From a virus (lineage: Duplodnaviria; Caudoviricetes): a stretch of 55,782 bases of DNA. Below, piece after piece: positions 2,936 through 50,870 of the stretch. Position 1 is the stretch's first letter; each line of letters starts with the position of its first letter. The DNA is taken from the IMG/VR virus record IMGVR_UViG_3300031788_000021, positions 1 to 55,782 of that record; one strand, written 5' to 3'. The notes under the pieces were generated by a model that was given only the letters and a program-made list of their open reading frames with translations, did not search any database and was not told the origin of the DNA. The translations under genes and the position numbers were made by a program.

Positions 2936-3378
2936 GACCGGTGGATCAGCGGATAGTGGAGCGCGGTCGCGGCGACTGCCTCAGGGCTTGCCTGGCCTCG
3001 ATCCTGGAGCTGACCCCGGATCAGGTCCCGAATTTTTCCGACTTCGCGAGGTATGCCGAGGACGAGAGCTGGGCGAAGCCGATGTGGAACTTCCTCAGGG
3101 AGAGGGGCTTGGAGTTCTACTCGGTGTACCCGCCGCTGAAGCCCCACGGCTACTGCATCGCCGTGGGCAAGAGCCCGAACATCGTAGGCTGCACCCACGC
3201 TGTGGTCTGGCGCTACGACCGCCTGGTCCACGACCCGAATCCGAGCAGGAAGGGCCTGGCCGGAGAGCCCACTAATTTTCTGGTGCTGAGCAAGATCAGA
3301 GAGGAGCAAGAAGACGCACAGGGCCGCGCTGACGCGCCGCCGAACAATGTAACCACAAAGGAGAACCACCGATGCTGA
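2932..3378 (+). CDS. papain-like (C39-type) peptidase-fold protein
   Basis: GDCLRACLASIL (Cys) ... HAVV (His) ... HDPNP (Asp) motif order; ATG at 2932 overlaps the upstream stop. Confidence 0.65.
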   Translation: MRPVDQRIVERGRGDCLRACLASILELTPDQVPNFSDFARYAEDESWAKPMWNFLRERGLEFYSVYPPLKPHGYCIAVGKSPNIVGCTHAVVWRYDRLVHDPNPSRKGLAGEPTNFLVLSKIREEQEDAQGRADAPPNNVTTKENHRC

Positions 3379-26800: not shown

Positions 26801-26923
26801 TCGAAGTCCGAGGCCTTCGCCGACCTCCTGATGCTGATCGAGCGCGAGGCCCCGGGCGTCCCGTCCGAGATCGGGAGGAGACTCTACCGTGCAGACGGTG
26901 CTGTCACGCCCCACAACAGATAA
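23858..26923 (+). CDS. modular putative internal head protein (1021 aa)
   Basis: tandem ~85-aa duplication, APAQ repeats, YSYGTHFPIA domain, and one copy of the hairpin+RRA linker (LDRLLDQ..DPEKRKQIEERIRSVQASIRAMMLRRA). Confidence 0.85.
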   Translation: MPTDFSFVKPEGWEMMKPDFEKAEKKWLEKVKKKEIDQATADKIVKLMWDKYDRWSKGKGLKKKEDQTMIQRHEKPKHKEERQAMVREARIGRTQLVDILNAITNGTVDNPNAFAYTLQLNQIADAEFFDMFSSDVQTYPQLYPDSLVSYFQNLFKEWGFGPGLDNLKKTAMNRQARVNRQQLVEILNMITGGNGPIWNSEDFPRVLEQKRISEDEFFNIFAEDVKSFPNLYPRHFINYFQDLFEDWGYGPEMERVRKAYRGNNGPKPNPIPSGGPGRAPAQAPAQAPAQAPAQAPAQAPAAGPGQVPEAPAPGQYPTEPQPWPQGMEPPRSAQGPVFRYYVLFRMPGEQQQRAAIAEGVSQADMGAWLNKQQAAKVQFFQAKQLSGGQATPVPGPGVAAKVPIKVPVSIPAGGESETSSGMIETSSGMIETPNPMDPKRYLWGMKFKTKSGHIGVIPNPARPDVRAPNMTGTEMIHLMEWYEKAGLPIIELHKTGPGVEARIGDDIMVRMAQSETPEDKFKSGTPVIFTDDVNLEFSSLSARGPVKKNMTGRVKKVDDQNYTIDIAGQMYLVPKIVAESVMSEFKPEVVVDEGDLEGGQQEAPAPSPEAAAAAPEAAPEPQDQVEIEEQPQAPQAPAPVGGAPKTDLSKAPKPQAKPQPVASVDDGSIVVLASELEDGSITSFASTYEERPDLGDITGALRGMVVVAASMTNRDVAKAFARGGEKARSKHMFIDGDTVYSYGTHFPIATRADDGTIYFTSKSYSASTSVHKSLVRKELSIKGLTIQESSVTLGDKVGPPNPEDKAMQDKRDASEQRRQERRQKRQVGRPSEPVAEESYAPGPTAPQTGKDAIPGMGPLMKRHTVPAPRKEEPSYFNMEKEVPTMKPGQQQIVLDRLLDQLSQESDPEKRKQIEERIRSVQASIRAMMLRRAELIGIDGLEQEVADRTKEKFHIKDDDGPIKNLPVSEPFSRQNTKPLNTASKSEAFADLLMLIEREAPGVPSEIGRRLYRADGAVTPHNR
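24692..24759 (+). repeat. (GCCCCAGCTCAG)5+ encoding (APAQ)5
   Basis: perfect 12-bp tandem repeat. Confidence 0.9.
25105..25153 (+). repeat. 21-bp tandem duplication
   Basis: CGAGACTTCAAGTGGTATGAT twice plus a partial copy. Confidence 0.9.
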
Positions 26924-26954
26924 AGGCCAAGGGCTCAAGCCCTCGGAGGTAGTT

Positions 26955-27950
26955 ATGAAGAAGTCGGCTGAAGCCGATCCGCACGCTGAGCAGGACCGAG
27001 TCATACGAGAATGCCTAGGGAACGAAGAGAAGCTGAAGTCTCTCAACGACACGATGGCGAGGACGATCGCCACCGAGGTCTACGATTTATCCCTGGCCAG
27101 GGCCCTGCTGCTGCCGCACCTGTGCTACGGGGGCGGATACTCTCCCGTCTACCAGGAGACCGACGCCGGTCCCGTGGTGATGGTGGACCTGGTCAGGACC
27201 GAGGAGCGCGTGCTCCACTGCCGGGCTTTCAGGGACAGCCTCTGCGAGGAGGAGACGGTGAGGACCAGGCAGGATATCAGGTACCTGACGGTCAGGGGCA
27301 AGGCCAGGCCCTCTTCCTTCACCCTGTCCTGCGTCTGCACCGCGAAGAGGACGGAACTCGGGCAGCGCCCCTACGCGATCGTGGAGCGCGCCCGACAGCA
27401 CCTGCTCCGCAGCCTGGCCCAGGACGAGACCAGGGTCATGCTCAGGGCCTTGGCTTGGGTCTGCTCCAGGTTCGGGACGCTGCGGTGGTGCGTTCGTCCC
27501 CAGGCCTCGCTGCTGCGGCTCCTGGGCGAGGCCGTCCAGCGCTCGGGGATGCACCGGAGCCCCGTGATCCTCTGCTCGCCCCTGGCCTTCGCCAGGATTC
27601 TGAATTTGAGGATCGCGCGCCTGGCTTCGGACCCGTCCCAGGACAGGCCGAGCCAGCCGATCGCGGCGATCGAAGTCGAGGGGCAGACGATACCGGTCTA
27701 CGTAAACCAGTCGATCCCCAACCACCTCTTCTACGTCATCCCCAGCGGAGCCGCCCTCGGGCAGATGCCGATCTTCTCCGAGGTCAAGGTCGAGAACTAC
27801 GACCGGAGGGAGCGGTTGATCAAGGGCTGGCAGCTGTGGCAGGGACAGGGCATGGTCTTCGTCAGGCCCCGGTCCACGAACGTGGTCTACTTCGGTTGGC
27901 GCGGCCTCTTGGCCGCCGTCAAGTCGCTTCTGGGATGGGGGAATAGTTGA
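26955..27950 (+). CDS. divergent paralogue of the major capsid protein (HK97 fold)
   Basis: colinear with 50871-51752: RPYAIVERARQ/RRYNLIDRAQQ, GQMPIFSEVKV/GVIPIRQDVNV, RERLIKGWQLWQGQGMVFVRPR/PERLRLGWVVYEELGIAVVNPR; GGAGG RBS. Confidence 0.8.
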   Translation: MKKSAEADPHAEQDRVIRECLGNEEKLKSLNDTMARTIATEVYDLSLARALLLPHLCYGGGYSPVYQETDAGPVVMVDLVRTEERVLHCRAFRDSLCEEETVRTRQDIRYLTVRGKARPSSFTLSCVCTAKRTELGQRPYAIVERARQHLLRSLAQDETRVMLRALAWVCSRFGTLRWCVRPQASLLRLLGEAVQRSGMHRSPVILCSPLAFARILNLRIARLASDPSQDRPSQPIAAIEVEGQTIPVYVNQSIPNHLFYVIPSGAALGQMPIFSEVKVENYDRRERLIKGWQLWQGQGMVFVRPRSTNVVYFGWRGLLAAVKSLLGWGNS

Positions 27951-30598: not shown

Positions 30599-31599
30599 TG
30601 GGCGACAAATTTTGGTCTGAACTCCGGGCGACGATCGCCGGTCTAAACAAGAAGCCGATGGTGAAGACTGCGTCGGCCAAGGACCCAAACCGCGTGGCCG
30701 TCGCCGAGGCCAAGGCCTCCGGGTTCTTTGTCAAGGCCAAGGCCATGGGCTGGGGCCTGTACCAGGTCGAGGAACTGGACGGCGGCCTCGGCTCGATCTG
30801 GCACGTGGAGAAGGACGCGGCGACGGGTGAGCAGTTCCTGGTGAAGCAGGTGGACCCCGTCGGCGACATCGTGCGCCGGGTCAAGACCGCTGCGGCCACG
30901 GGCAAGATCGTGGTCGCCGAGGACGAGAGCATTGACCCGAAGGGCGGGGGCGTGGACACCCCGTGCAAGGAATGCGGCAAGCCCCTGGGCATGGCCTACT
31001 TCTTGGACGCTCTAGGAATCTGCACCGACTGCGTCAAGAAAAGGCACAAGGACGTGACGAATCCTGGGTGGCGGAATAAGAAGGCATCGATCGTTGTCGC
31101 CGAGGACGAGAGCATCGTCCCCCAGGGCAAGGATGACGGGTTCGGGGATCAGGACAACCTCATCGTCGACGATCAACCCGAGCAACCCGCAGCGCCAGAG
31201 GCTCCGGCAGCCGTTCCCCCCATGAACGACATGGTCAAGTCGTACCTTGGGACCGCGCTCTGGGCCGAGACCGACAACGCCGATGAGAGAGGCGGAGAGC
31301 CCCTGGACAAGAACTACGACGTCGAGGACTTCGCGCCCGAGGCCGTGGCCAAGGCCACCGCCGACTGCGCCGCGTTCGAGGAGAAGGCGGGGCCCCTGCT
31401 CGAAGGCATCGAGCGCCAGGGTCAGGATGTTCCCGACGTCATCGGCTTCCACTTCTGGCTGACCAGGAACCACCACGGCGCCGGGTTCTGGGACGGCGAT
31501 TACCCCAAGGAGATCGGGGAGGCCCTGACCAAGCTCTCGCACGAGTTCAGAGAACAGTACGTGGATGTCGGAGACGACGGAAAACTTTACCTATCATAA
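30595..31599 (+). CDS. modular putative internal head protein
   Basis: VKTAS/VKTAA/KKAS motifs, a Zn ribbon, and a C-terminal [14 protein letters not shown] domain. Confidence 0.8.
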
Positions 31600-31618
31600 G
31601 GGACCAGGAGAACAGACC

Positions 31619-34600
31619 ATGAGCGCAGACAAGATTTTCCCCGCAGGCTCGGGCAAGGGTCAGGAGACGGACATGGACAAGCTCGCCCAGGGCATCAGGG
31701 CGGCCAAGGCCGCCACCTCCTCCTGGATCGACGACGTTCAGGATCGGATCGCCGAGACCGGTCGCCGCATCATCGCGGCCCGGGATCACGTGAAGATGGC
31801 CTCGGCCCCGCAGCGGACGAGCCCCCTCCCCAACAACCAGATGTACGCGGTCGACAGGATCGATCAGGGCAAAGGCGGGCCCCGGGACCTGAGTCAGATC
31901 GCGGCCCAGGACAAGGACCGCCAGGTCAACAACATCGTGGCCAGGGCCCGCGAACTCCTCCAGAAGAAGATCGCGGAGGTCCCGCTCAACGGCGCCGACG
32001 TCTACCTCACGAGGACGGACATCAGCCGCTGGGATGACCACACCGGAACCCCGCAGACCGGGAGGATCGCGTTCCAGATTCCGTTCAGCACCCCGAGCGG
32101 CGGCCCCAGGACGATCTACGCCAACGTCGACATCGTCCTCGGGGACCCGATGGAGCCCCGCTACTTCAGCGACGGCCTCAACCACCACTACGCCTTCGAC
32201 AAGTCGGGCCTGAGCGAGATGCTCCAGGGCTCGATGTTCGACGTCGTCCAGACCCCGCACGTGGTCCCCGAGCAGAAGTTCACGGGGCCGGAGTTCCACT
32301 CCCCCGACGGAATCCCCGGGCAGGTCGCTGCGGTCGACGGCCCCAGGATCGTGCGCGCGAACCGGGACATGACGCGGCAGGCGGGCGTCCCAGAGAAGCC
32401 CCGCTACGTCGCCGAGGGCATGGTCAGGGCCATCTCCAAGGAAGCGATGGAGATCGCGGCGCCGCTGAGCCCGAGTCAGGTCCAGGACATCAAGACCAAG
32501 CCCGCAGCGCCACCCCCGCGCCAGCCCTCCCACGCCCTCTCCAACTACCCGACCGGCGCCGAGTCCAACACCGGCTACCCCGAGGGAGATCAGGCCCCGG
32601 GCAAGTCCACGCTCGCCTCCCGCGTCGTGGTCTCGGTCTCAGGCATGAGCCAGGTCGTGGAAGACCTGAAGCTCATGGACATGCGCATGGTCAGCTTCCG
32701 GGACCTGATCCAGCTCCTGAAGCAGCACGGGAGCATGGCCTCCGTCGACTTCGAGGGAGCGGCCAAGACCTTGGCCAAGGACGGGATCGTCCTGTACCAG
32801 GCCGCGTCCAAGGCCGACGCCTCCCTGGGCCGCCGCGTAGCCCGCGCCCACGCGCAGCGGCTCGCCGCACCCGTGGCCGAGCCCCAGGAGAAGAGCGAAC
32901 TCCCGACCAAGCCCGAGCAGGAACCCGGGGCCAAGCCCCAGGATCAGGTCCCGCCCGAGCCCCCGGCTGAGCAGCCGCAGCAGCCGCAGGCCCCCCAGCA
33001 GCCCGCGCCGCAGGGCCAAGCCGAGATCGCGCCCCCCAACGGCATGGATACGGTCGAGTTCAAGGAGTGGAACCGGCTGATGGACGAGTGGCGCAACGAG
33101 AAGGCGACGATGAACGAGCGCGAGGAGAACAACGTCAAGAACGGGCTCTCCCCCGAGACCGGCATCGACTACACCAACCTCCAACTGATCATGGACAAGA
33201 TCAGGTCGATGCAGTCCTCGGTCCAGGGCCGCGCGACCCAGGACCTTCAGGAGGCTCCTGCGGACCTCGCCGCAGCCCCGAAGACCAAGCCCATGCCCGG
33301 CGCGGGCGGGGGACCGGCGCCGAAGGACATGGCCGGGGCCCCGGCGGAGCAGACCCTGATCCCGGAGAAGGGGCAGGGCCTGGCCGCCGATAAGCGCCCG
33401 ATCAGGACCGCCCTGGATCAGGCCCTGGACATGAAGGAGCAGGGCACGACCATCCTCGACGGGGTCGAGACCGTGGCCGCGAACACCGCGAACGTCGACG
33501 CCGCGACCGGGGGTGGGACTGCGTTGCCGAAGACGGCGGACATGGCGTCCCGTCCCCCATTGGGCGGCAAGGACTTCGACCTCACGGGCATGATCATGGC
33601 CTTCGAGAGCGGAGAACTCGACGACTCGGGCATTATCGAGTTGTTCCAGCACCTGGTCGACACCGGCATGGCCTGGAAGCTCCAGGGCTCCTATGGCCGC
33701 GCGGCACAGTCCCTGATCGAGCAGGGATTGATCCATGTGCCGGTTGAGAGCCAGCCCAATGCCTACGGAGACATCGTCCCCGGGACAGACACCGGTAAAA
33801 CATGCCAGCTCTGCAACGGGGCCCCTCTGAAGAGGACCCCCGGCGGTGACTGGGCTTGTCCGAAGTGCGAGAAGGACATGTTCATGAGTGGGGACGAGAT
33901 GAGGGCTGCGGTCAAGAGCGTTATGTCTAAGTTCGCCGTCTACGAGGTTGACGACGAGGCCAAGACCCAGATGTCGGCTATGGGCAAGGACCCGGCGAAC
34001 CCCCAGCATGTCAAGGAGTTCATGGACACGTACAAGAAGACGGCGGGCGTCCGCAGCCAGAAGTTCCCGGAGGTGTGCAAGAACTGCAAGCACCTCATGG
34101 TCCCCGTGGGCTACTCCGTGCTCAAAGAGTTCAAGCACGAGCGCCTGCCGATCTGCGGCGCGGCGCAGGCAGACGGCGTCGGCTTCCGCTGGGCCCACTT
34201 CCGGGACTGCGCTGGCTACGACCCGATCGCCAAGGACGTGGAGCAGAAGGTCGACGTCAACGCCCCGGAGTCGGAGCAGAAACCCGCCGATGAGAAGAAG
34301 GTGGTCAAGCCCATCAACGAGAGGCGCGCGGACGGCAAGCGCGTCGCGGTGGCACCCCCGGGCCTGGAGCACGTCGTCAAGGAACTGAAGAAGGACCCCA
34401 AGGTGGAGAACCCCTTCGCCGTCGCCTGGTCGATCAAGGACAAGCAGGAGGGCAAGCAACCGGAGAAGAAAGCGGCGGCCCTACCCTCCGCCGACCCCAA
34501 GTCCGTGAAGGAGAAGGTCAGCCCCACCGGCTACGGCCTGGACATCCGGGAGTGGTGCAAGTCCCACGGCCACTACGCCCCGGCGGGTGAGCACCACCCC

Positions 34601-34759
34601 ACGCACGACTGGTGCACGCTCTGGAACACGGCGGTGGAGAACCTGGTGATGCTGCCGAGCGGGGCCGTCGTCCCCAAGAGCATGGCGGGGATGTCCTCCG
34701 AGCCCCACGGCGAGGGCGGACCCCGGCAGTTCGGTCGGGACATGGATCAGAGCGGGTGA
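31619..34759 (+). CDS. large modular putative internal head protein
   Basis: AGGAG RBS before ATG 31619; many [KR]xA motifs; [16 protein letters not shown] domain; Zn ribbons. Confidence 0.85.
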
Positions 34760-36177
34760 AGATGGACGAGAACTACCGGACGCGGATCAGCCACCAGCCC
34801 GACTGGCTCATAGACGGGCTGGTGAAGTCCGCCGTCTTCGCCGACGAGTCCAGGGACGAACCCATGTTCAAGACCGAGGTCTCCTGGAACCAGCTGAAGA
34901 CCCAGGTCCAGAGCCTCCTGGTCCGCAGCGGCCTCAACCTCACCAAGCGCGAAATCGGGGTCGCCACCTACTGGCTCACGGAGAGGATCGCGGGCTACGT
35001 AAGCGAGCAAGACACGAAGGAGACGTTGACTGAGACCATGCAGAACCTGGTCTCGCAGTACATCGTCGATAAGTCCCTCCAGCGCACCACCGGCGTGAGC
35101 GAGCGCGGTCCCATCCACACCCGGGAGTGGTATGACAAGAACTACGGCCAGGCTCCGGGCATGGACAAGGACGCGGCGGCGGACGACGACGATTCCGGGC
35201 CCGAACTCTCCGACGACTCCGAGCCCCAGGTCTTCGTCGGCATCGACGGCGACAACATCGGGAGCCTGGTCGAGGAGACGCTGCTCACCGACGACCCCGA
35301 GGCCGCATCCGCGATCTCGCGCTCGATCCACGACGCCCACGACGAGATCGGGGACGTGGTCAAGGAGCGCGGCGGTCGCCTGATCTTCGATGGCGGCGAC
35401 AACATGCTCTTCACCCTGCCCCTGGACATTGACACGATCGAGGGAATCCGTAGAATATATAGGGACAAGACGGGGCACAGCGCCACGGTTGGGATCGGCA
35501 AGCGGCCCATCGAGGCCCACTTCGCCCTGGTCGTGGGCAAGAACACGGGCAAGGACAAGATCGTTGTCTTCGGTCAGGAAGTGCTGGACGAGTACGAGGC
35601 CATCCACGAAGAGCAAGAGGAGGCGGCGCCCCTGTTCCAGAAGCTGAAGTACCGGGCCAGTGTCAGCGCCGGAGCCAGCGGGGTCGAGGGCGTGGTCGAC
35701 CGCGCGTTCTGGGACCTCGGCGTCGCCCGCGTCCTCCGCGCGGTCCTGGGCAAGCTCGGTCTCCCGGTCGACGACGAGTCCGTGTACGACACCTTCATAC
35801 GCCTGGTCCACGCCCACGGCCTGGACAGCGTCGTCTCCATCCACCGCTTCTTCACCATGGGCTTCGACGCCCTGGAGAACGCCGTCCGCACCGTGCGCGG
35901 CGGTCCCGAGCCCACGGTCACTGCCGGGGTCAAGTTCATGGCTCTGGCCGCCGTCCCGACCTCGGAGCCCCAGCACTTCCCGGGGCAGTCGGTGCCCCCC
36001 TTCGGCCAGACCCGGAAGTCGCCGCACCCGAGGAAGGACTGGCTCACTATCGAGGATTACAACAAGGACCAGGTCGACGTCTCGAAGACGGACGTGAGCT
36101 ACGTCGGCGGAAACGTGCCCAAGGACAGCCAGATGATGTGCGGCGGAGACCAGGGCGACCCGATATACGTTCCATAG
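34756..36177 (+). CDS. modular protein with an mCpol (minimal CRISPR polymerase, GGDEF-like) domain
   Basis: [11 protein letters not shown] ... [13 protein letters not shown] ... SATVGIG ... [14 protein letters not shown] at ~35230-35575; GTGA coupling. Confidence 0.8.
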
Positions 36178-36191
36178 AGAGGAGAACCAAG

Positions 36192-38831
36192 ATGATCACC
36201 CCCTACCAAAACCCCGAAGGCCGCGACGACAAGGCCAGCAGCTTCTGGCACACCCTCGCCAACAAGCTGGGGCTCCGGGCTCCGAACCTCAAGCAGGCCT
36301 CCGCCGACGACCTCCGGGTCCAGCGCCTCTCCGACGGTATCCAGACTCAGGGCAGGGCCCCGATCCGGCAGGGCATGGTCAAGGTCGCGGGACTGACCAA
36401 GGTCTCGGCGCCGCAGCACCTGGCCGAGTCCGTGTTCGACCGCATCATCGACATGCACCGCCGCGCCGAGGCCCAGCTGAGCCAGGCCGAGCGCGTCAAG
36501 GCCGTGGACTTCCTCAGCCGGATCGCGGACCAGGCCGAGGGCGTCAAGGGCTCGGTCGGCGCCTGCGGAGGCGACCAGAAGGTCGCGGACCTCTGCGGCG
36601 AGATCACGGCCAAGGCCGACGCCGTGATCGGTGCCGTGACGCAGCTGAGGGATAAGGCCTCGGACATGTCCGTGGCCCAGGCCGAGGCCATCTCCAACGC
36701 CTTCCTCCTGATCAACGACGCCGCCAACTACCTCGGGAAGAAGGGGGCGGTCGAGCCCGCCTCGTCCCCGACCATGCCCGAGATCGAACTCATGGACGGC
36801 GGCCTCCCGGAGATGCCGCCCTCGGAGGAGACCCCGAGCCCGGCGTCGGCGATCGCGGGGCACATCCCGGCCATGGTCCGCAAGGCCATGGACGAGGCCT
36901 ACGACGACATGCGCTGCGTCCACACGAAGATGCTCCTGATCGAGTCCATGCTCAACGAGATCATCGCCGACCTCAACGTCAACACGATGATGACCCCGGG
37001 GATGCCCGGGGACGGGATGCCCCCGACCACGGAGCTTCCGGGTCCGGACACCCCCGAGGCCATGCGCGAGGAGTCGGAGGAGCAGGCGGCGGCGAAGGGC
37101 GCCGAGGCCGGTCTGGAGGGAGTGGTAGTGGTGGCCAGAACCGATGTCCACCCTATCGAGGAAATGAACGAAGAGTACCATGGTCAGCAAGACGTCTCGG
37201 ACCACAGAAGTCCGCCGTGGGAGAGGAAGCGGAGAAAGAATCTCCAGGAGACCAAGAAGACCGCCGCCTCCGGCGACCCCGGCGACTCCGAGCCCGGCAA
37301 CTCGATCTACAAGGACATCAACAAGTGCCGGGACTGCGTCTGGTTCGAGTCCGACGTCACGCACGAGACCTACCGCGACAAGTGCAGGGGCTGCGAGCAC
37401 GCCAAGCTCGGCGGCATCGCCAACCACTGGTGGCCCAAGGCCCAGCAGATGGTGATCTGGGCGCCCCAGTACGAGGGCGAGTCCGAGCACGTCCGGCTCT
37501 CGGTCAGAGACACGCTGACCCTGCGCCAGGCCCAGCCGGACCAAGCGCAGTCAGTCGCGAGGGAGATCGTGGCCGCCGCCGACCACCACGCGGTGGACCT
37601 CGGCGAGGTCATGGTCGACACGTTCCGCAACCCGCTGATCGCCAGCCAGATGGGGACGCTGGCGCGCGGGATCGTCGCCGAGGTCGCGAGCCTGACCGGC
37701 GTGACCATGGCCCGGGACGCCAAGGACGGCAACCTGATCATCGCGTATCCCGTGATCGAGCAGGAGGCCAAGGGCGAGAAGGCGAGGATCAGGGAACTCC
37801 GGACCCAACTCGAAGGCGAGAAGGACCCGGTGAAGATCAAGCAACTCCACGACGCGATCGAGGCCCTGCACGACCGGATCAGCAAGGACAAGGAGCGCAA
37901 GGAGCAGCGGCGCAAGGACCGGGCGGAGCGGAAGGAGAAGCAGCAGGCGGAGTTCGACAAGCAGCACGCGAACATCCCGGCGAAGACCGCATCGAAGTGG
38001 AAGGAGCGTGGGAACTGCTCTCATTGCGGGCATCCCATGTCTATGCACGGGGATACCACTTCGGCGTGCATGGACTGCGTCGAGTCCGGTGGTCCGTGCG
38101 CCAATGGGATTCCAAGTGGTTCCGAGGCGGCGGCGTCCCTGACCGGCAGCCTCTGCCTCGCCGACGCCCTCCAGTGGCCGTCGGACAGCCCCGAGCTGGG
38201 GGCTGGCGAGGCGTTCTCGGTCTGCCATAAGTGCGGCCAGGAGCACGCCCTGGACACCCCTTGCACTCCCGAGACCCCGGAGGAGCGCGTCAAGCGCATC
38301 GTCGGCCCCGGGCCGGGGAAGCAGGTGGCGACCATGGACGTGCCCCCCGGAGGGGCGGACGTCGCGGTCACCAGCGTCAACGGGATGCCCCAGGCGAGCG
38401 CTGGCGTCATCGGAACCCTCACCTCCAGGGGGTCGCTTCGTCTAGGGGAGATCGAGCAAGAGGCGTCTCCGGCCTGGGTCAAGGTCATCGCCATTATCGC
38501 CAATATGATGGGGACCAATTGCCAGGAAGTGGTTAATAATCCTGATCAGGGGAAGCAGGCTTACGAGTGGGTCGATCAGCATCGGGAAGCCGTGGACAAG
38601 ATCAGGCAGGAGCTGCTGGATGACCCCGATATCAGCCCCCAGGAAATAGACACGGACATGGTCGCCGCCTTCAAGTATTTAAAGGGCAAGGATAGGCCCC
38701 AGGACAAGCACCATCCCGCGAAGACATCCCCGGTGAAAGCCCCGACTCAGAAGGTGCAGGCGCCAGCGCCAACGCAGCCGCAGACTCAGGTTAGTGTCGC
38801 TGGAACCCTCACCTCCAGGGGGTCGCTTTGA
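36192..38831 (+). CDS. large modular putative internal head protein (zero-frame product, 879 aa)
   Basis: GAGGAG RBS; KTAAS/KTAS/RQA motifs; Cys clusters; ends at CTT-TGA-C. Confidence 0.85.
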   Translation: MITPYQNPEGRDDKASSFWHTLANKLGLRAPNLKQASADDLRVQRLSDGIQTQGRAPIRQGMVKVAGLTKVSAPQHLAESVFDRIIDMHRRAEAQLSQAERVKAVDFLSRIADQAEGVKGSVGACGGDQKVADLCGEITAKADAVIGAVTQLRDKASDMSVAQAEAISNAFLLINDAANYLGKKGAVEPASSPTMPEIELMDGGLPEMPPSEETPSPASAIAGHIPAMVRKAMDEAYDDMRCVHTKMLLIESMLNEIIADLNVNTMMTPGMPGDGMPPTTELPGPDTPEAMREESEEQAAAKGAEAGLEGVVVVARTDVHPIEEMNEEYHGQQDVSDHRSPPWERKRRKNLQETKKTAASGDPGDSEPGNSIYKDINKCRDCVWFESDVTHETYRDKCRGCEHAKLGGIANHWWPKAQQMVIWAPQYEGESEHVRLSVRDTLTLRQAQPDQAQSVAREIVAAADHHAVDLGEVMVDTFRNPLIASQMGTLARGIVAEVASLTGVTMARDAKDGNLIIAYPVIEQEAKGEKARIRELRTQLEGEKDPVKIKQLHDAIEALHDRISKDKERKEQRRKDRAERKEKQQAEFDKQHANIPAKTASKWKERGNCSHCGHPMSMHGDTTSACMDCVESGGPCANGIPSGSEAAASLTGSLCLADALQWPSDSPELGAGEAFSVCHKCGQEHALDTPCTPETPEERVKRIVGPGPGKQVATMDVPPGGADVAVTSVNGMPQASAGVIGTLTSRGSLRLGEIEQEASPAWVKVIAIIANMMGTNCQEVVNNPDQGKQAYEWVDQHREAVDKIRQELLDDPDISPQEIDTDMVAAFKYLKGKDRPQDKHHPAKTSPVKAPTQKVQAPAPTQPQTQVSVAGTLTSRGSL

Positions 38832-39255: not shown

Positions 39256-42200
39256 ATGGCTGACGCCAACGACAAGACCGCGAGCGTGCCCGCCCCTGAA
39301 GGGTCGGGTCTCGTCACGTCCAACTTGGACGCCGAGTTCAAGATGATCAAGAACGCGGTGAGCCCGGGGCTGACCGGCAGCGCCCTCGTGGACATTCCCC
39401 GCGCGCGCATGAAGAAGATGGCGTCGCAGTTCGGGAACATGAGGCCGGGGCTGCACCGGCAGGCGCCGTCGTTCTACCACCCTCTGTTCGAGGCGCTGAA
39501 CCTACAGCTTCCGACGAAATCCTTCTATCCCGGGACGCTGATCACCATGGCGGACGGGACACAGAAGATTATCGAGAATTTCATGCCCGGTGACGAGGTT
39601 GTTTCTCACGACGGGTCGATAGAGGTCGTGGAGTTCACCGAGCACCATCCTGCGACCGGATCATCCGTCGAGATCAAGGCCCAGGGCATGGACCTGCCTC
39701 TGCGCGTGACCTCTGGGCACAAGGTCCTGGCTCTGCGTGCCGAGGACGTGGGGTGCGATAAGGAAGATAAGCCCGGGTTCTGCATTTTCGGGAAGAATAC
39801 CCACTGCGAGCGGTACACGAATGGGCCCAGGGGCAGCGTGGATCGCTGCAAGTCGAGGAGGAACGAAATCCCTGCCCCTCGACCGATCGAGGCATTCAAG
39901 CTCAGGAAGGGCGACTACGTGTTCGTCCCGATCGTGGGCGGCGTGGAGAAAATGAGTCCGTACAGGGAAGAGCGCTATAACCCGGCGACGAACTCGTTCA
40001 TCCACGTCAGGGACGTCGAGGTGGACGAGAAGATGATGAGGCTCTTGGGCTACTACGCCTCGGAGGGCTCCGTAGGCAAGCGCGCTGACGGGGAAATCCA
40101 CTCGACCACTTTCAGCCTGAATATAAATGAGAAGGACACCCTGGCAGCCGAGATCGTGGCCTTGATCAAGGATGTGTTCGGGAAGAAGGCTTGGAGTAAC
40201 CCGGGGCAGAACAATACCTACATTGTGGTGGTCAACGGCAAGAAGATAGGGAAGTGGTTCATCCGCCACTGTGGCAAACTGGCCAAGGAGAAGGTCCTGT
40301 CCCGGGAAGTTATGTTCGCGGACCCCGGTCTCCAAGTTCACTTCCTGGCTGCGTACGCCAACGGAGACGGGTCCCAGATTACCGGGGGCTCCAGCGCGGG
40401 TAAGGTCGTGATCACCACCGCGTCGGAGAACATGGCCAACCAGCTTGCTATCCTGGCTAGGCGTTGCGGCATGGCCCCGACCAAGCGCTACGAGTACAGG
40501 AAGGACGGGTTCTCGGGCGAGGGACACCCGACGTGGAATTGGCAGGTCGGAATCGCCAATGGCTTCGTGGCCCCTTTCGTGGGGATAAGCAAATTCGTCC
40601 AGCACAGAAAATCATTTTTCATGAACAAGATGGTGATCCATAAGAAGTGGATCGCGCATAAGATCATCTCTGTCAAGGAAATCGATTATCGAGGAGAGGT
40701 CTGGAATATCGGAGTCCGGAAGCCGGTCAGAATCCTCGTTCCGTACAAGGAAAAACACCTTTTGCTCCATGGTCGCTTCGTCGGAGGGAAGCCGTTTGAG
40801 CACCATATCGAAATCACTGGGGTGAGCACGGCGGGCAATCATACAGTGATCGCCAATGGGTATGCTTGCTGTCAAAGCCGCGAAATCAATCAGTGGGCGC
40901 GCCATTTCATGAAAACAGATGGTTACGTTGGGACCACTATTTCTATGCACGCCGACCTCCCGATGACCGGAGCCCACCTGGTCTGCGACGACGAGAAGGT
41001 GAAACTCTTCTTCGAGATTCTGTTCTTCGACGTGATCAAGGGCCTCAACCTTATCGGCGACATTAGTTTGGAATACTGGAAATTAGGAAATGTTTTTCCG
41101 TTTGGCGAGTGGGACGACGACCGTGGCATCTGGACGGGCTTCAACCTGCTGAACCCCGACTTCGTCGAGGTCGAGAAGGCCAGCCTCGTCGGTGAGCCGA
41201 TCCTCAAGCTGGACCCGGACGACAACCTCAAGCGGATCGTCGCCAGCCGCCAGCCCAAGGAACTGTACGAGGCGTTGGCCAAGATCGAGAACGGGCAGTT
41301 GGTCAACCTCGTGGCCCGTGGCGAGAAGATTCCGCTCAACAAGTTCCGCGTCAGCCACCTCGCGTACAAGATGAGCCCGTACGAGAGCGTGGGCACCCCG
41401 ATCATGTTCCGCGCCTTCAAGCCCCTGATCTTCAAGGACTTGGTCCGCCGGGTCCAGCAGGCGGTGTACGAGCGCCACATCACCCCGATCAAGCTCGTGA
41501 AGGTCGGCACCGACACCATGCCCGCGAACCCGCAGGCCGTGACTCAGGTGCGCGAGGCCTTCGACGAATTGAGCCAGGACCTGAGCGCCTGGTTCGTCTA
41601 CCACCACGCGATCTCGGTCGAGTACGTGTCCAGCGCCGGGAAGATTCACCCCTTCGACCAGGAGTCGAAGTGGATCAGGGAAGAGATCATGGCCGCTCTC
41701 ATGGGCTCCGAGGCCATGATCGGCGGCACCGGCCCGAACTTCGCCGCTGGTTCGATCGGCCTCCAGGTCCTGATCAACCGGTACATGCGGGTCCAAGAGA
41801 TGCTGGCGCGCTGGATCAAGGATACGATCTTCCGGCCCGTGGCCATAGCCCAGGACTTCCGGCGCCGCAACGAACTCGGGGAGGACGAGTACATCGTCCC
41901 CGACATCGAGTTCGAGTTCATGAAGCTCAAGGACGACGTCCAGATGAAGGGTCTGATGAAGGAGATGGCCAAGACCGGCCTGATCTCGAAGCAAACCTTC
42001 TACACGTACTTGGGCCTGGACTACCGCAAGGAGAAGCGCCAGATCGAGCGGGAGCGGGCCGAGGAGAAGAAGGCCGCGATGCAGGGGATGAAGCCCGGAG
42101 GCAAGCCCGGGGCGGGCGGCGCCGGGGCCCCTCCGCCCATGGGCGGTGGTGGCGGCGGGGACAGCGGCGGCGGTGAGGGACCGGTCCCCGGCGAGGGCGA

Positions 42201-42297
42201 GACTGCGGCCACGGTCCCGACCCCGGGCACGCCCATGCCTGCGGCGGAGACCATACCTGGCGCGGGCGCCGGTCAGGGACTCCCGGAGGCGGCATGA
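39256..42297 (+). CDS. portal protein (intein-containing)
   Basis: spliced sequence LPTK|SREINQWARHF ... EYWKLGNVFPF ... LLNPDFVEV ... GTPIMFRAF; Gly/Pro tail; position before gpF, protease and capsid. Confidence 0.85.
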   Translation: MADANDKTASVPAPEGSGLVTSNLDAEFKMIKNAVSPGLTGSALVDIPRARMKKMASQFGNMRPGLHRQAPSFYHPLFEALNLQLPTKSFYPGTLITMADGTQKIIENFMPGDEVVSHDGSIEVVEFTEHHPATGSSVEIKAQGMDLPLRVTSGHKVLALRAEDVGCDKEDKPGFCIFGKNTHCERYTNGPRGSVDRCKSRRNEIPAPRPIEAFKLRKGDYVFVPIVGGVEKMSPYREERYNPATNSFIHVRDVEVDEKMMRLLGYYASEGSVGKRADGEIHSTTFSLNINEKDTLAAEIVALIKDVFGKKAWSNPGQNNTYIVVVNGKKIGKWFIRHCGKLAKEKVLSREVMFADPGLQVHFLAAYANGDGSQITGGSSAGKVVITTASENMANQLAILARRCGMAPTKRYEYRKDGFSGEGHPTWNWQVGIANGFVAPFVGISKFVQHRKSFFMNKMVIHKKWIAHKIISVKEIDYRGEVWNIGVRKPVRILVPYKEKHLLLHGRFVGGKPFEHHIEITGVSTAGNHTVIANGYACCQSREINQWARHFMKTDGYVGTTISMHADLPMTGAHLVCDDEKVKLFFEILFFDVIKGLNLIGDISLEYWKLGNVFPFGEWDDDRGIWTGFNLLNPDFVEVEKASLVGEPILKLDPDDNLKRIVASRQPKELYEALAKIENGQLVNLVARGEKIPLNKFRVSHLAYKMSPYESVGTPIMFRAFKPLIFKDLVRRVQQAVYERHITPIKLVKVGTDTMPANPQAVTQVREAFDELSQDLSAWFVYHHAISVEYVSSAGKIHPFDQESKWIREEIMAALMGSEAMIGGTGPNFAAGSIGLQVLINRYMRVQEMLARWIKDTIFRPVAIAQDFRRRNELGEDEYIVPDIEFEFMKLKDDVQMKGLMKEMAKTGLISKQTFYTYLGLDYRKEKRQIERERAEEKKAAMQGMKPGGKPGAGGAGAPPPMGGGGGGDSGGGEGPVPGEGETAATVPTPGTPMPAAETIPGAGAGQGLPEAA
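39520..40875 (+). mobile_element. intein with LAGLIDADG endonuclease (452 aa; Ser1, C-terminal Cys-Gln, Ser+1)
   Basis: SFYPGTLITMADG (block A), VTSGHK (block B), LLGYYASEG and FLAAYANGDG (endonuclease), YRGEVWNIGV (block F), HTVIANGYACCQ|S. Confidence 0.88.
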
Positions 42298-42734
42298 GCT
42301 TCGACCCCAAGAACTACCGTGGCGCGGGAGACCGCAAGGACGTGCGCACCGGCTCCCCGGAGGACGTGGCCCTGCGCCCCGGCCTCATGTCGGAGAAGAC
42401 CCACCTCCCCGACCTCGACTACCGCAAGCTCCAGATGGCGTCCCTGGGCCGCATGGCCAAGGCCAAGACCGCCAAGGCCCCGGCGGACCACGCCGCAGGA
42501 CAGCGGTATCAGGCCCTGGTCAACTACCTGAGCCAGCGCGGGTCCCAGGTCGACGCCGCAGAGGTTGACCGCAGGATGCGGACCTGGTTCGAGGACCTGA
42601 TCAACCGCGTGCTCCAGGACCCGGCGGCCTGGGACGTGGAGAAGATTCTGGACGGCAAGGCCCTGATGGACTACCTCTCCGGGGTCAAGGGCGGGCAGGA
42701 GCAGCCCCCGCAGCAGGAACCCCCAGCCAAATGA
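42294..42734 (+). CDS. hypothetical head-module protein
   Basis: GGAGG RBS; ATGA coupling at both ends. Confidence 0.75.
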   Translation: MSFDPKNYRGAGDRKDVRTGSPEDVALRPGLMSEKTHLPDLDYRKLQMASLGRMAKAKTAKAPADHAAGQRYQALVNYLSQRGSQVDAAEVDRRMRTWFEDLINRVLQDPAAWDVEKILDGKALMDYLSGVKGGQEQPPQQEPPAK

Positions 42735-44494
42735 ACCCGATCATCTACCCGCACAGGGCAGTAGAGCGCGCGCCGATCAGGCTCGCGCTCCCCGAATCCG
42801 TGCTGGTCCGGAAGCTGGCGACCGCCCGCGACGACATGAGCGCGTTCGTGCTCCAGGACTTCCTCAAGGCCGGTTTCCGCGAGGTGGAGTGGCGCTACGG
42901 CTTCGAGCCCTGGCAGAATGAGAAGCTCTGGCAGGAGATGGGTAGCGTCTGCCCCGCGTGCTTCGCCCTGGACGGCCAGCGCTTCAAGATCGACTGGCTC
43001 CTCCAGAACATGCGGCACAACGCCCCGAAGTACACGATGAGTCACGTCAACTGTTTGCCCCCGGGGACGGAGATCATGATGTCGGATGGTTCTGTTCGCT
43101 TGATAGAGAGCATCAGGAAAGGGGACGCGGTCCTTGGGCATGACGGAGAGGCCCACCTCGTGACGGGGACGACGAAGAGGAAATACGTGGGCGACCTGGT
43201 CAGCCTATTGTCGTGGGGCGGAAAGGAACTATTGCTGACACCGAACCATCGCGTCTACGCTCAGAAGGGCCACTTGAAGTACGCTAATTCCGGCGGGACT
43301 GTGTTCTCGGATTGGGATTTTGTCCCAGCCGATGACCTCGAAGCAGGCGTTCGGAGAAAAAGGGGTGTATCCGACAAGGTCTATTTCCCAACGGTGTCAG
43401 GAAATTCTGGGTGCGATCTAACGGACGAGCAGGTGGAACTATTTGGGTACTGGATGGCCGAGGGTTGCACGAGGCTCAACAGGGGCACCGGAGAGAGGAT
43501 AGCCCTGATCTTCACCATAGGCCAGCATGAGATGGATTTCGCGAATAGGATAGGGGCTCTGTGTTCCCGCCTGGAGCAAGATAGCCATCTCTCGATCAGG
43601 AAGAACGGGCACGCCACGGTGGTCTACTGGTCATCTAAAAAATGGACCAAGATATTCATGGGACTGGGCGGGCTCGGCGCGCGTGAAAAGAAGATGGCAC
43701 CCGAGGCCATGAGGTGGCCCATCGATAAACAGAGAATTTTTCTCAACGCCTTCATTCGGGGAGACGGGCACATATCCAACCGGAATTTCTCGGACAAATA
43801 TCTCGGGAGGACCCAGAGGATATACATCACCACTCACTCCAAGCAGTTGGCGAACCAACTGTACGTGATGCTGGATCGCCTGCACGTCCCGGTGTTAATG
43901 AACGAGACCATGACCCCCACCGGACCTCAGGATCGCTTGGCCGGATCAACTAAAAAGTTCCCCCACTATCTGATCCACTTCAACAGGTGGTCGTGGGACC
44001 GGGTCGGTAAGCCCCCGCACACCAACTCCAGAGTCCTGGTCGCGGCCAACAGCGTGGTCTCAATGCTTAGGTCAGTGGGCAGGGTTCCGTATTCTGGCAT
44101 GGTCCACAATATCTCCGTCGCGGGGTCGCAGAGTTACATCGCCAACAGGATCGCGGTGCACAACTGCGAGTGCCGCCTCTTCAAGATCAACCGCACGGAC
44201 GAGATGCTGGACTTCTCCGAGCAGGTGACGGTAGTCCCCGGGGACATCGACCCGAGCCTGACCGAGGCCCCGGTCGACCTCGGGGACGTGCCCGAGGATC
44301 AGCGCCAGGAACTGGGCCTGCCCGAGCAGGAGAACCAGTGGACGGACATCGAGTGGAAGTGGGACCCGAAGCGCAACGAGTTCGTCCCGCTCAAGACCTT
44401 CATGGAGGGAGAGACCAGCCCCTGGCTCCTGGACCAGGACACCGGCGAGTTCGTGCCCCACGAGGAGTGGGTTAAGCGCCACGGTCTGCAATGA
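42731..44494 (+). CDS. Mu gpF/SPP1 gp7-like head morphogenesis protein (intein-containing)
   Basis: VCPACFALDG ... HVN|CEC after splicing matches the CxxC...HxNCxC motif. Confidence 0.8.
   Translation: MNPIIYPHRAVERAPIRLALPESVLVRKLATARDDMSAFVLQDFLKAGFREVEWRYGFEPWQNEKLWQEMGSVCPACFALDGQRFKIDWLLQNMRHNAPKYTMSHVNCLPPGTEIMMSDGSVRLIESIRKGDAVLGHDGEAHLVTGTTKRKYVGDLVSLLSWGGKELLLTPNHRVYAQKGHLKYANSGGTVFSDWDFVPADDLEAGVRRKRGVSDKVYFPTVSGNSGCDLTDEQVELFGYWMAEGCTRLNRGTGERIALIFTIGQHEMDFANRIGALCSRLEQDSHLSIRKNGHATVVYWSSKKWTKIFMGLGGLGAREKKMAPEAMRWPIDKQRIFLNAFIRGDGHISNRNFSDKYLGRTQRIYITTHSKQLANQLYVMLDRLHVPVLMNETMTPTGPQDRLAGSTKKFPHYLIHFNRWSWDRVGKPPHTNSRVLVAANSVVSMLRSVGRVPYSGMVHNISVAGSQSYIANRIAVHNCECRLFKINRTDEMLDFSEQVTVVPGDIDPSLTEAPVDLGDVPEDQRQELGLPEQENQWTDIEWKWDPKRNEFVPLKTFMEGETSPWLLDQDTGEFVPHEEWVKRHGLQ
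43052..44164 (+). mobile_element. canonical class-1 intein with LAGLIDADG endonuclease (371 aa)
   Basis: CLPPGTEIMMSDG, LTPNHR, LFGYWMAEG, FLNAFIRGDG, YSGMVHNISV..YIANRIAVHN|C. Confidence 0.93.
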
Positions 44495-44495
44495 T

Positions 44496-44726
44496 ATGAG
44501 CATGATCAAGCAAGGAGCACCGAAGGAGTCAAAGGTACTGGGCTTCGATCCGGCGGCGGGCTGGGTCGACCCCAAGTCCAAGGCCCAGCCTATGATCCCA
44601 GAACTGAACGTCTCGTGCCCGAACTGCCGCGTCCTGGCCCAGGCCAGCGCCGACGGCACCGTCTTCTGCCCGAAGTGCGGGATGATCATAAATCCCAGCA
44701 GCACCAACGAGAGGAAACCCCTATGA
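44496..44726 (+). CDS. small Zn-ribbon protein
   Basis: CPNC ... CPKCG. Confidence 0.7.
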   Translation: MSMIKQGAPKESKVLGFDPAAGWVDPKSKAQPMIPELNVSCPNCRVLAQASADGTVFCPKCGMIINPSSTNERKPL

Positions 44727-46858
44727 ACCAGATCGCGCTCCCCAGCGGCGGTTGGCTGAAGTACGCGTCCTTCGGCGGCAAGGTCGTGGAGCGCGCCGAC
44801 GGCTCCTGCCCCGAGTGCGCCCTCTTCCGGACGGCGGGCGTTGTCCGGCCCCGGTGCGAGCACCACTTCGTGGAGCGCACCGCTTTCGGTCTGAAGATCG
44901 CCGAGGCCCCGCAGAAGTACGCGGCGCTCCTCGACGACTACAAGAAGGCGATCAACGTCCAGCGCGTGGCCCCGATGAACCCCGAGTTCAGCTTCTACCG
45001 GGTCATGGGCCTGCACGGGGACTGGCCGAACACGAACGGCGACCTCTTCCGCTGGGGCTCCAAGGACGACGCCAACGAGCCCGAACTCCTGCGCCTGATC
45101 CGAGAGGGCAGTATGGTGGGGAAGAGCGTGTACCAGACCTTCGTCGGGAAAGGCAACTATAAGGACCACAACAACTCCAAGGTCGCTGACGCCGTCGGCA
45201 TCATCCTCGACGCGGTACCGAACCATCGGGTTAAGGGCGTCGAACTCCTGCTCGCCGTGGACCGGACCAAGGACCCGATGCTGGTCCGGGGCATCGACAG
45301 CGGATACATCACAGACGTATCGATGGGCGCCGTCCACCCCGAATCCCTCGTTCTCTTGGCCTCCGGGGAGACCGTGATGGCCGGGCACATGATCCCCGGG
45401 GTCGAGGTCGTCACCCACTGCGGTCGCCCCAAGATCGTCAAGGCGGTGCAGGTCTCCCAGATCGAGGGCACCGTCGTCTCGATCAAGGCCGAGGGCCTCA
45501 CCGCCACGGTCTTCACGGGGGACCACCCCATCTGGTCCATCTCGGCCCAGAGAAGGAAAGAGCAGAACATGTGGCGCTCCCGCATGAGCCACCAGCGCCA
45601 CTTGAAGCGGATGGAGGAATCGGGGTACGAGCGCCAAAGGAATAGGACCGCTCTCTTGGAGCCCCGCGAAGTTTCCCCGAATTTCGTCTCTGCCGCAGAC
45701 ATAAAGGTGGGCGACTACGTGGGCATCCCCTTCCCCACCGAGGTGAAGCCCAGCACCTTCTCCAACAAGGATTTCGCGCGCCTCCTGGGCTACTACATCT
45801 CCGAGGGCTGGATCATCACCCAGGACGGGAAGATGTCCGGGGTGGGGTTCGCCCTCAACATCAATGAGGGGAAGATCGCCGAGGAGATCGCCAACCTCTG
45901 CAAGAAGGTCATGGGCAAAGAGGCCCACGCCAGAGTCTGCGAGGAACGGAACGGCCTCTACCTGGAGGTCCACGATCGCGTTTGGCCCAAGGTCTTCACG
46001 GACCATGCGGGCCGGGGCGCCAAGACCAAGTCACTGTCCAACGAGGTCACCCTCTGGGACCCCTCCGTCCAGATGGAGATGCTCGGAGCCATGATCAATG
46101 GCGACGGCTTCCAGACCAAGACGGGGATGGTCTATTACTCAACCTCCTCCGAGGTCCTAGCGCGTCAGGCCCAGTCCATCTTCGCGCGCTGCGGGATCAT
46201 CGCGAACATCCAGGTCTTGAAGCACAAGCCCTCCAAGAACTCCGTCGTGAGGAAGGACACCGTGGAGTTCCAGGTCGCCGTGGGATGCACCTATTCCCAG
46301 AAGCTCTCTTCGGTCTCTAAGGTTTCCATAGTGGAGCCCAAGAGGCCGCACCACAACAAATTCATCCAGGACGGGTGCATCTGGACACCGATCAAGTCCA
46401 AAGAGATCGTCAAGTACTACGGACCAGTCGTCGACCTTCAAGTGGAAGGCGACGAGTCCTTCGTGGCCAACGGCATGGCCGTCCACAACTGCCGCGTCGC
46501 CTACTCCATCTGCACGATCTGCGCGAACGTCGCCCACAACGAGGCCGAGTACTGCCCCCATGTCAAGAACTGGAAGGGGCAGCAGTACAGCGGCCCCGAG
46601 ACCGGGTGGAAGAACGTGCTCGCCGCCGAGGACAATCGCGGCGTCGAGTTCATCGAGGAGTCGTGGGTCACCGTCGGCGCCGACACCAAGGCCAAGCACC
46701 TGGAGAAGATCGCGGCGCTGCGCAAGGTCAAGGGCCAGGCGCGCATGGCCGAGATATTGGCCGAGGCCGAGTCCGAGCTGAACAAGAACTGCCTCTGCGA
46801 CTGGCAGAAGGTGAGCAACCTCCTGGACATGGGGATCGCGCAGGCCATCCTGGCGTAG
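44723..46858 (+). CDS. prohead (capsid maturation) protease, intein-containing
   Basis: PNTNGDLF ... YKDHNN (His) ... AVGIILDA ... DVSMG|C (catalytic Ser) + CTIC..CPH insert ... FIEESWV..GAD. Confidence 0.85.
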   Translation: MNQIALPSGGWLKYASFGGKVVERADGSCPECALFRTAGVVRPRCEHHFVERTAFGLKIAEAPQKYAALLDDYKKAINVQRVAPMNPEFSFYRVMGLHGDWPNTNGDLFRWGSKDDANEPELLRLIREGSMVGKSVYQTFVGKGNYKDHNNSKVADAVGIILDAVPNHRVKGVELLLAVDRTKDPMLVRGIDSGYITDVSMGAVHPESLVLLASGETVMAGHMIPGVEVVTHCGRPKIVKAVQVSQIEGTVVSIKAEGLTATVFTGDHPIWSISAQRRKEQNMWRSRMSHQRHLKRMEESGYERQRNRTALLEPREVSPNFVSAADIKVGDYVGIPFPTEVKPSTFSNKDFARLLGYYISEGWIITQDGKMSGVGFALNINEGKIAEEIANLCKKVMGKEAHARVCEERNGLYLEVHDRVWPKVFTDHAGRGAKTKSLSNEVTLWDPSVQMEMLGAMINGDGFQTKTGMVYYSTSSEVLARQAQSIFARCGIIANIQVLKHKPSKNSVVRKDTVEFQVAVGCTYSQKLSSVSKVSIVEPKRPHHNKFIQDGCIWTPIKSKEIVKYYGPVVDLQVEGDESFVANGMAVHNCRVAYSICTICANVAHNEAEYCPHVKNWKGQQYSGPETGWKNVLAAEDNRGVEFIEESWVTVGADTKAKHLEKIAALRKVKGQARMAEILAEAESELNKNCLCDWQKVSNLLDMGIAQAILA
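45329..46489 (+). mobile_element. Ala1 intein with LAGLIDADG endonuclease (387 aa), class-2-like
   Basis: G|AVHPESLVLLASG, FTGDHP, LLGYYISEG, MLGAMINGDG, YYGPVVDLQV..FVANGMAVHN|C. Confidence 0.88.
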
Positions 46859-50774: not shown

Positions 50775-50870
50775 AGCTGACCTGAGACGAGTCTCACGCC
50801 GCAGACGCAGACGTCGCACCGCGACGGGCCCGGACGGCCAGTGGCCCGCGCATCGAAGGAGGAGGTCAGC

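Follow-up and report, generated by a model that had tools for sequence, protein, structure and literature searches.

The minimal CRISPR polymerase (mCpol), a domain reportedly defined by Burroughs et al. in 2015, came to attention in 2025 as the bacterial component of a guard system directed at phages that deplete immune nucleotides. In the published mCpol systems, as far as the available text of the sources goes, the cyclase works with effectors of the CARF, SAVED or two-transmembrane (2TM) type. Here, a gene for a 471-residue protein with an mCpol domain is described from a tailed-phage record of IMG/VR (Duplodnaviria; Caudoviricetes; IMGVR_UViG_3300031788_000021), which is linear, has 64% G+C and is estimated to be 38% complete; its whole length of 55,782 nucleotides was analysed and is referred to as the window. 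The explanation of this locus that we favour, with a probability of roughly 0.55, is that it encodes a lineage-conserved phage protein with a working mCpol-type palm cyclase, the signalling nucleotide of which would be aimed at host sensors and the enzyme itself possibly delivered in the virion. An earlier note, made from the letters of the window, had recognised the domain, described mCpol in the Panoptes defence system as the maker of a cyclic di-adenylate that holds a toxic membrane effector off until phage sponges or nucleases deplete it, and placed the domain in a putative head-cargo protein; the mechanism described there agrees with the available parts of the two Panoptes papers (PMC12657218, PMC12657230).

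The domain belongs to the mCpol family, as the earlier note had observed. The Pfam profile PF18182 is matched over its entire length (profile positions 1–114 of 114; E 1.2e-20; 74.4 bits, against a curated cut-off of 26.4 bits), and a six-frame search of the record returned the same place at 78 bits and no second mCpol copy. The span given earlier, 35230–35575, lies within a few bases of the Pfam match at 35233–35571, and the motifs on which the recognition had been based are all in frame (IDGDNIG at residues 161–167, FDGGDN at 209–214, ATVGIG at 241–246 and GKDKIV at 263–268), as are the bounding KDAAA (136–140) and KYRAS (296–300). The Pfam Cas10-Cmr2_palm2 profile matches the same domain at 38.4 bits (E 1.7e-9), and a phmmer search against all PDB sequences put the two OptS/mCpol proteins of solved Panoptes structures at the top (E 1.5e-6), with the Cas10 and Cmr2 chains far below them. 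In an AlphaFold2 model built on 17 relatives, the domain is predicted with a predicted local distance difference test (pLDDT) score of >90, and Foldseek placed the OptS chains at the top of the PDB for this model (template modelling score, TMt, 0.82–0.86; root-mean-square deviation 1.6–2.2 Å over ~117 residues). GGDEF domains reached a TMt of only ~0.5, and the choice of mCpol over both GGDEF and Cas10 (74 versus 38 bits for the Cas10 palm) is borne out by profile and fold alike.

The catalytic acids, which had been said to look intact, are in place. In the phmmer alignment D162 and D213 correspond to Asp6 and Asp57 of Klebsiella pneumoniae OptS (KpOptS), which are catalytic residues with tested mutants according to the available text of PMC12657218. 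Ser30 and Asn34 of OptS, which confer ATP selectivity according to the available text of PMC12657230, correspond to S186 and H190. Because the specificity serine is kept, an ATP-like substrate is probable; because the equivalent of the adenine-contacting Asn34 is His in the window protein, and variable across the relatives, the product may differ from that of OptS. At the position of the GGDN motif OptS itself carries AADG, so that GGDN is compatible with activity; the idea that GGDN instead of GGDD marks an inactive enzyme was ruled out, since the solved and active OptS has AADG there. All 17 family sequences share D162, G163, D164, G211, G212, D213 and N214 without exception, and in a GKNTGK motif G259, K260, N261, G263 and K264 are invariant among the 17 relatives, with T262 nearly so. 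The cyclase is the best-conserved segment of the protein, with a mean pairwise identity among 15 full-length members of 71%, compared with 56% for the tail, 53% for the N-terminal domain, 45% for the C-terminal helices and 36% for the linker. On these residues the phage protein probably carries a catalytically intact mCpol domain with enzyme activity, and we infer for it a chemistry like that of OptS.

Enzymes of the mCpol family are homo-oligomers in which two palm domains enclose the active site, and they make a cyclic di- or trinucleotide from nucleoside triphosphates. A prediction with two copies of the protein and ATP reached an ipSAE of 0.74 (0.27 for the best of three controls), a score that measures likeness and may reflect the memory of the model, since a dimer like the predicted one has already been solved (9NWN). 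Of 30 proteins solved as same-chain pairs, 20 reached the mark used for a dimer, as did one of 23 solved as single chains. Contact agreement across the runs was at least 90% and the pLDDT of the partner at least 83, with a predicted interface formed by residues 170–189, 208–213 and 248–261 and by the helix at 275–303.

The start of the gene is placed at an ATG two nucleotides past the stop of the upstream gene, because a longer GTG frame from 34612, rejected as the gene start, runs into that gene and because four relatives (P0004, P0005, P0006 and P0008) begin at the same methionine. The N-terminal helical domain is specific to this protein family, its hidden Markov model (HMM) matching only the mCpol open reading frame (ORF) in each locus; no known family was matched, and an Atlas search gave no usable match. 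The window protein as a whole has no match among the PHROGs, and its N- and C-terminal parts are without a family match. In a long relative, the extra C-terminal part is predicted to form long helices and not a sensor-like alpha/beta fold. The C-terminal tail is retained even in relatives without a working cyclase, and a word-based search with it (residues 392–471) returned only five members of the same family.

A word-based search with the protein returned 17 proteins, all with mCpol, most of ~615 residues and 40–53% identical to the window protein. Scans for relatives found three viral and eight metagenome loci, of which nine are distinct (L007 duplicates L003, and L011 duplicates L004). Using tblastn with the window proteins, homologues of the upstream DUF7417 protein, the downstream protein and the portal were each present in 10 of the 11 loci, and each missing neighbour falls where its locus ends. 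The conserved order is a large DUF7417 protein, mCpol, a protein of ~750–900 residues and the portal, and as it persists even where the mCpol proteins are only 33% identical, the gene is a permanent part of the head module rather than a mobile accessory. When the window is compared with the near-identical record L002, the mCpol proteins share 98.5% identity, the downstream genes (36192–38831 and L002 11431–13575) 75% and the upstream 1021-residue gene 82%; the module is a mosaic, since the flanking genes differ far more than mCpol. In L004, which represents the most distant lineage, the gene that follows mCpol (11409–13655, + strand) has a terminal DUF5661 match of 27.4 bits against a cut-off of 27.

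There was no relative of the protein in 185,579 bacterial and archaeal species genomes (one genome per species), and a tyrosine integrase was found in none of four lineage records (the control was positive in 14 of 14 genomes). With neither an integrase nor a cellular relative, there is no sign of lysogeny. No match was returned by tblastn with the whole protein or the domain alone against 50,697 phage records, even at E ≤ 1, or by megablast with 15 kb of the window. A long-form mCpol query matched only one of the 50,697 phage records, Myxococcus phage Mx1.

That the cyclase is phage-encoded, as first read, follows from the virus record and from the capsid, terminase and portal genes around it (Table 1). 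The mCpol gene shares its strand with the structural genes and is placed after the terminase and before the portal; along that strand the order is giant InPase protein, terminase, a block of unknown genes including DUF7417, mCpol and the 879-residue protein, portal, a further intein-bearing gene, protease and capsid. Among the PHROGs, the giant protein matches minor head, virion and DarB-like proteins; InPase is found in giant ORFs of three of four lineage records, two related records having InPase-bearing open frames of 2324 and 3902 residues. For the upstream, downstream and a 989-residue neighbour, phmmer against the PDB returned nothing meaningful.

Table 1. Positions of the mCpol gene, its domains and the surrounding head-module genes in the window.
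Feature	Position	Strand	Remarks
Giant polyvalent-like protein, 3705 residues	7568–18685	+	InPase domain at residues 2218–2336, nucleotides 14216–14575
Terminase large subunit	19946–21634	+	–
Upstream 1064-residue protein, DUF7417 / phrog_3908	31565–34759	+	Conserved neighbour
Gene for 471-residue mCpol-containing protein	34762–36177	+	Residues numbered from the ATG at 34762
N-terminal helical domain, residues 8–128	34783–35145	+	pLDDT ~80; mean pairwise identity 53%
Acidic disordered linker, residues 129–155	35146–35226	+	10 acidic residues, 1 basic residue
mCpol palm domain, residues 158–270	35233–35571	+	Pfam, phmmer, model, Foldseek
Catalytic codon D162	35245–35247	+	Within the mCpol palm domain
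Catalytic codon D213 of the GGDN motif	35398–35400	+	Within the mCpol palm domain
Long helix after the palm, residues 272–304	35575–35673	+	Invariant LKYRA motif; part of the predicted homodimer interface
C-terminal helical region, residues 313–380	35698–35901	+	~145 residues shorter than in most relatives
C-terminal tail, residues 392–471 (FPGQ...DWLTIEDYN...IYVP)	35935–36174	+	Conserved, predicted disordered
Downstream 879-residue protein	36192–38831	+	No assigned function; strong ribosome-binding site; conserved neighbour
Portal protein interrupted by intein	39256–42297	+	–
Head maturation protease interrupted by intein	44615–46858	+	–
Major capsid protein	50841–51752	+	phrog_2522, E 6e-82

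Several features of the module stand apart from the cyclase. The major capsid protein shares 61% identity with gp27 of Bacillus phage G, and more remote relatives of it are found in other very large phages and in Bxz1-like mycobacteriophages; for a phage of 64% G+C the link to phage G, with its low-GC Firmicute host, is unexpectedly close. Hint/intein matches with LAGLIDADG occur in three successive head genes (39256–42297, 42731–44494 and 44615–46858; + strand); the portal of L004 also has an intein, and the portal of L003 (568 residues) has no intein match. A 353-residue protein in the terminase–portal interval (26889–27950, +) is a distant capsid paralogue (23.5% identity over 319 residues; E 4e-11), and an ATG ORF at 27011–27946, in another frame than this paralogue, looks spurious. 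Near the start of the window, a 522-residue protein (3372–4940, +) has at its C terminus a highly charged repeat, in which D, R, H and G abound and GR dipeptides form a run, and has no family match.

Beyond this family, when 1.84 billion representatives were searched with a profile, 1130 matched at E ≤ 0.001 and 651 at E ≤ 1e-10. Among the matches listed outside the first set (n = 144), 130 are >180 residues long and lack a hydrophobic segment, 13 have ≤180 residues and one has two membrane segments; both catalytic motifs, searched as simple patterns, stand at the expected spacing in 129. A Pfam scan of 64 of these 144, picked with a bias to long proteins, found further domains in 14. InPase is fused to mCpol in P0023, ART-PolyVal together with DUF5661 in P0047, and DUF5661 in P0050, P0077 and P0162 (four unrelated proteins, counting P0047), while NUDIX is fused in P0048, P0087 and P0116 and GGDEF in P0032 and P0039; other fusions involve SAM lyase, GNAT, DUF3293 and a PI3/4-kinase-like domain, with two matches below their cut-offs. 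CARF, SAVED and HEPN domains were found in none of the 64. PHROGs match 10 of 56 of these proteins, never via the mCpol region, and as the window protein has no PHROG match either, the families catalogued for phages essentially lack the mCpol domain. A quick tree, made from 158 domains over 120 columns, groups the mCpol–InPase protein P0023 with the family (SH-like approximate likelihood ratio test, 84); the broad mCpol alignment was too divergent for a scan for viral contigs.

These fusions connect mCpol with what the available text of PMC5512222 says of phage-type polyvalent proteins, of which InPase is a domain with a proposed role in clearing pyrophosphate for nucleotidyltransferases. Polyvalent proteins, those with GGDEF domains included, are described there as probably packaged and injected, and the GGDEF domains are proposed to act against rival elements. 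The fusions and the InPase context are suggestive of a polyvalent-type packaging of the mCpol protein, which is itself encoded among the virion genes of a terminase–portal phage. Head cargo, as proposed in the earlier note, is possibly the right description, by analogy, from the gene position, the conserved synteny and the polyvalent-domain fusions of related mCpol.

The absence of an adjacent effector, another claim made from the letters, was confirmed in the window, the neighbours being DUF7417 or of no family and none of the 26 main-strand proteins having two hydrophobic or membrane segments by hydropathy. The Cap15-type (PF18153) and SAVED (PF18145) domains were found in none of five records, a weak test in which the controls were positive in no genome and CARF profiles were not run. 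Panoptes systems, of types I and II, pair mCpol with a neighbouring S-2TMbeta (OptE/Cap15-like) or CARF-TM effector in bacterial or archaeal genomes, often beside CBASS. Since the neighbours are DUF7417 or without a family and no partner effector was detected, the locus is not a Panoptes operon; from the virus record, the head module and the lack of an adjacent effector, the gene is not a member of a Panoptes system. As for the depletion of nucleotides, a Tad2-like sponge was found in none of the five records, which are 30–79% complete (control positive in one of 14; Acb2, Tad1 and other sponge families not searched), and a 2H (Acb1-like) phosphoesterase likewise in none of the five (control positive in 11 of 14). 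With no sponge or nuclease detected in them, these records show no sign that the phage depletes host nucleotides.

The protein is most likely an active, late-made and possibly packaged phage cyclase. It would be made together with the head genes and pair via the palm domain and the following helix, and it would condense two or more nucleoside triphosphates to a cyclic di- or oligonucleotide. The substrate would probably be ATP-like, with one base-contacting residue differing from OptS, and the InPase domain that the giant polyvalent-like protein carries may remove the released pyrophosphate. As the searches turned up neither a receptor nor an effector encoded by the phage, the signal would most likely be directed at nucleotide-sensing proteins of the host and keep signalling-based immunity at bay, jam it or pre-empt it. 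Such action could begin with the first moment of infection, if virions carry the enzyme as they would those of phage polyvalent proteins, or come at a late stage in the infected cell. Several results weigh against this account. P0020 has the N-terminal domain and the tail with no mCpol, P0024 keeps the tail with the acidic motifs lost, and the domain of Mx1 WNM70340.1 has also lost them and, at 24.4 bits, falls under the Pfam cut-off; because this frame exists without a working cyclase, the protein may have a catalysis-free role too. Only one enzymatic domain can be recognised in the window protein, which is for that reason not a strict polyvalent protein with two or more unrelated effector or enzymatic domains. 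The HMMs of the N-terminal domain, C-terminal helices and tail match only the mCpol ORF of each locus, comparison of the mCpol protein with all other proteins of the window by BLAST and phmmer gave no match below E 0.1, and a common packaging or cleavage tag was dropped as an idea, there being no shared segment between the mCpol protein and its neighbours, nor are the KDAAA and KYRAS flanks shared with other window proteins. The link to polyvalent proteins is further weakened by the length bias of the Pfam sample, in which phage origin was read from domains only, by the many unresolved forks of the quick tree and by single-protein scans with P0023, P0047 and P0077 that returned no viral contig.

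Part of this evidence would also suit an enzyme that is made late and never packaged, and that serves, for example, superinfection exclusion, lysis timing or host reprogramming via a cyclic dinucleotide. A position in the late operon shows timing and not packaging, no shared packaging tag was found among the window proteins, the action proposed for the GGDEF domains of polyvalent proteins is against rival elements (available text of PMC5512222), and Foldseek against BFVD found GGDEF-like proteins in phages that include Bacillus phage G (gp350) and phage SP-15. The place beside the portal is, however, fixed across lineages with mCpol at 33–49% identity, related mCpol is fused to domains that the available text of PMC5512222 assigns to the virion, and no receptor was found in the records, so that such an unpackaged role seems possible and on the whole unlikely. 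Somewhat less probable is the anti-guard form of the favoured explanation, raised in the earlier note, in which the phage cyclase supplies the inhibitory nucleotide of a Panoptes-type system so that the phage's own sponges or nucleases spare the guard. Membership in the family of OptS, the apparently intact catalytic residues and the lack of an effector of its own would agree with this, as would its logic, which fits the mechanism in the available parts of PMC12657218 and PMC12657230; no phage counter of this kind appears in the available text of the Panoptes papers and reviews. Yet the records, 30–79% complete, hold neither a Tad2-like sponge nor a 2H Acb1-like nuclease (0 of 5 each; Acb2 and Tad1 untargeted), the adenine-contacting Asn34 is replaced by a His that varies in relatives, and a phage sponge would soak up the phage's own product too. 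The boldest form of the favoured explanation, in which large virulent phages inject a working, virion-borne mCpol that floods the cell at once with an 'all is well' or jamming nucleotide and so silences Panoptes-like guards or other nucleotide-sensing immunity, is just as doubtful. A role chiefly in the structure or assembly of the head, with the palm as a scaffold or nucleotide-binding module, would account for the frame of N-terminal domain and tail that is kept in P0020, P0024 and Mx1 although no working cyclase is present, for the place of the gene as a core member of the head module and for a predicted-disordered tail conserved at 56%; it is improbable in view of catalytic residues that are invariant in 17 of 17 sequences, a cyclase that is the most conserved domain at 71% and catalytic patterns at the expected spacing in 129 of the 144 listed representatives. 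Most improbable of all appears a phage-borne defence of Panoptes-like or type III-like kind with its effector in an unsequenced part of the genome. All records are incomplete (30–79% by CheckV) and published mCpol systems, in the available text, use CARF, SAVED or 2TM effectors, but the five records showed no Cap15-type or SAVED domain (a weak test, its controls never positive), none of the 26 window proteins has two membrane segments, the gene belongs to the head module rather than to an accessory island, and the lack of an integrase (0 of 4 records) and of any relative in the 185,579 species genomes hints at no lysogen to protect.

If the favoured account of an active phage cyclase is true, phages would write nucleotide signals as well as erase them, and an apparently intact, effector-less mCpol in a core head module is a concrete candidate for a means by which phages might neutralise guard systems. 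In the boldest form of that account, a third layer would be added to the arms race, running from defence to sponge to guard to phage-made decoy, and mCpol would be a widespread and overlooked module of phage-delivered polyvalent proteins. The large metagenomic pool of long-form mCpol (1130 matches, mostly >180 residues among those listed) lies outside the published census of ~535 entries, which has a single viral row. That row, in Supplementary Table 3 of PMC12657218, is WNM70340.1 of Mx1, labelled 'mCpol+?', in a table in which the word 'Bacteria' occurs 517 times, 'Archaea' 17 times and 'Viruses' once. Among the papers listed for mCpol, those on the enzyme are the Panoptes studies with their preprints and a few later reviews and preprints. 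Apart from the Mx1 row, no phage-encoded mCpol is described in the available text of PMC12657218, PMC12657230, PMC13577387 and PMC13712596, the available text of the jumbo-phage survey PMC7824862 has no occurrence of mCpol, and a search of full-text literature found nothing that links mCpol with polyvalent proteins. As far as these sources extend, what is new here is a lineage-conserved phage mCpol with its catalytic residues intact, the previous record in print being one unremarked row for Mx1.

Among known systems, the Cas10/Cmr2 palm of type III CRISPR shares a homologous palm fold and a GGD-type motif with the phage domain (E 1.7e-9), whereas the window protein has no HD domain, second palm, D4 or Cas partner and its match is weaker (38 versus 74 bits). 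The polyvalent GGDEF and InPase proteins of Iyer et al. 2017 (PMC5512222) resemble it, in the available text of that paper, as palm cyclic-nucleotide synthases near the virion genes of terminase–portal phages with a giant InPase protein. The same text has no mention of mCpol and uses 'CRISPR polymerase' once, on Cas10, and in contrast to the proteins described there the window mCpol is a separate gene with a single recognisable enzymatic domain. In Mx1, also a large phage, the gene for WNM70340.1 (468 residues), with its mCpol-like domain, likewise has structural neighbours: the genes for major capsid and tail sheath lie on either side, and a 1479-residue 'NUDIX hydrolase' and a 'kinase' are encoded beside it, but the domain is N-terminal and the protein has no detectable likeness to the window protein outside it. 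No other mCpol-like gene turned up in a cultured phage, and this one (L005, 14995–16401) is probably a non-catalytic relic, the protein probably being inactive because the DGD and GGD acids are missing.

The closest described relative is OptS of the Panoptes system of K. pneumoniae (PDB 9MNR, 9PD0 and 9NWN). OptS is a stand-alone protein of ~120–130 residues in a two-gene bacterial operon with a membrane effector, whereas the phage form is a domain within a 471-residue head-module protein (616 residues in most relatives) with no effector found, and the two are ~22% identical, with Asn34 changed to His. Both belong to the same Pfam family, the predicted phage domain superposes on OptS with a TMt of 0.82–0.86, and the phage protein keeps the two catalytic aspartates and the specificity serine of OptS; a symmetric homodimer is predicted for it, though this prediction may reflect the dimer already solved.

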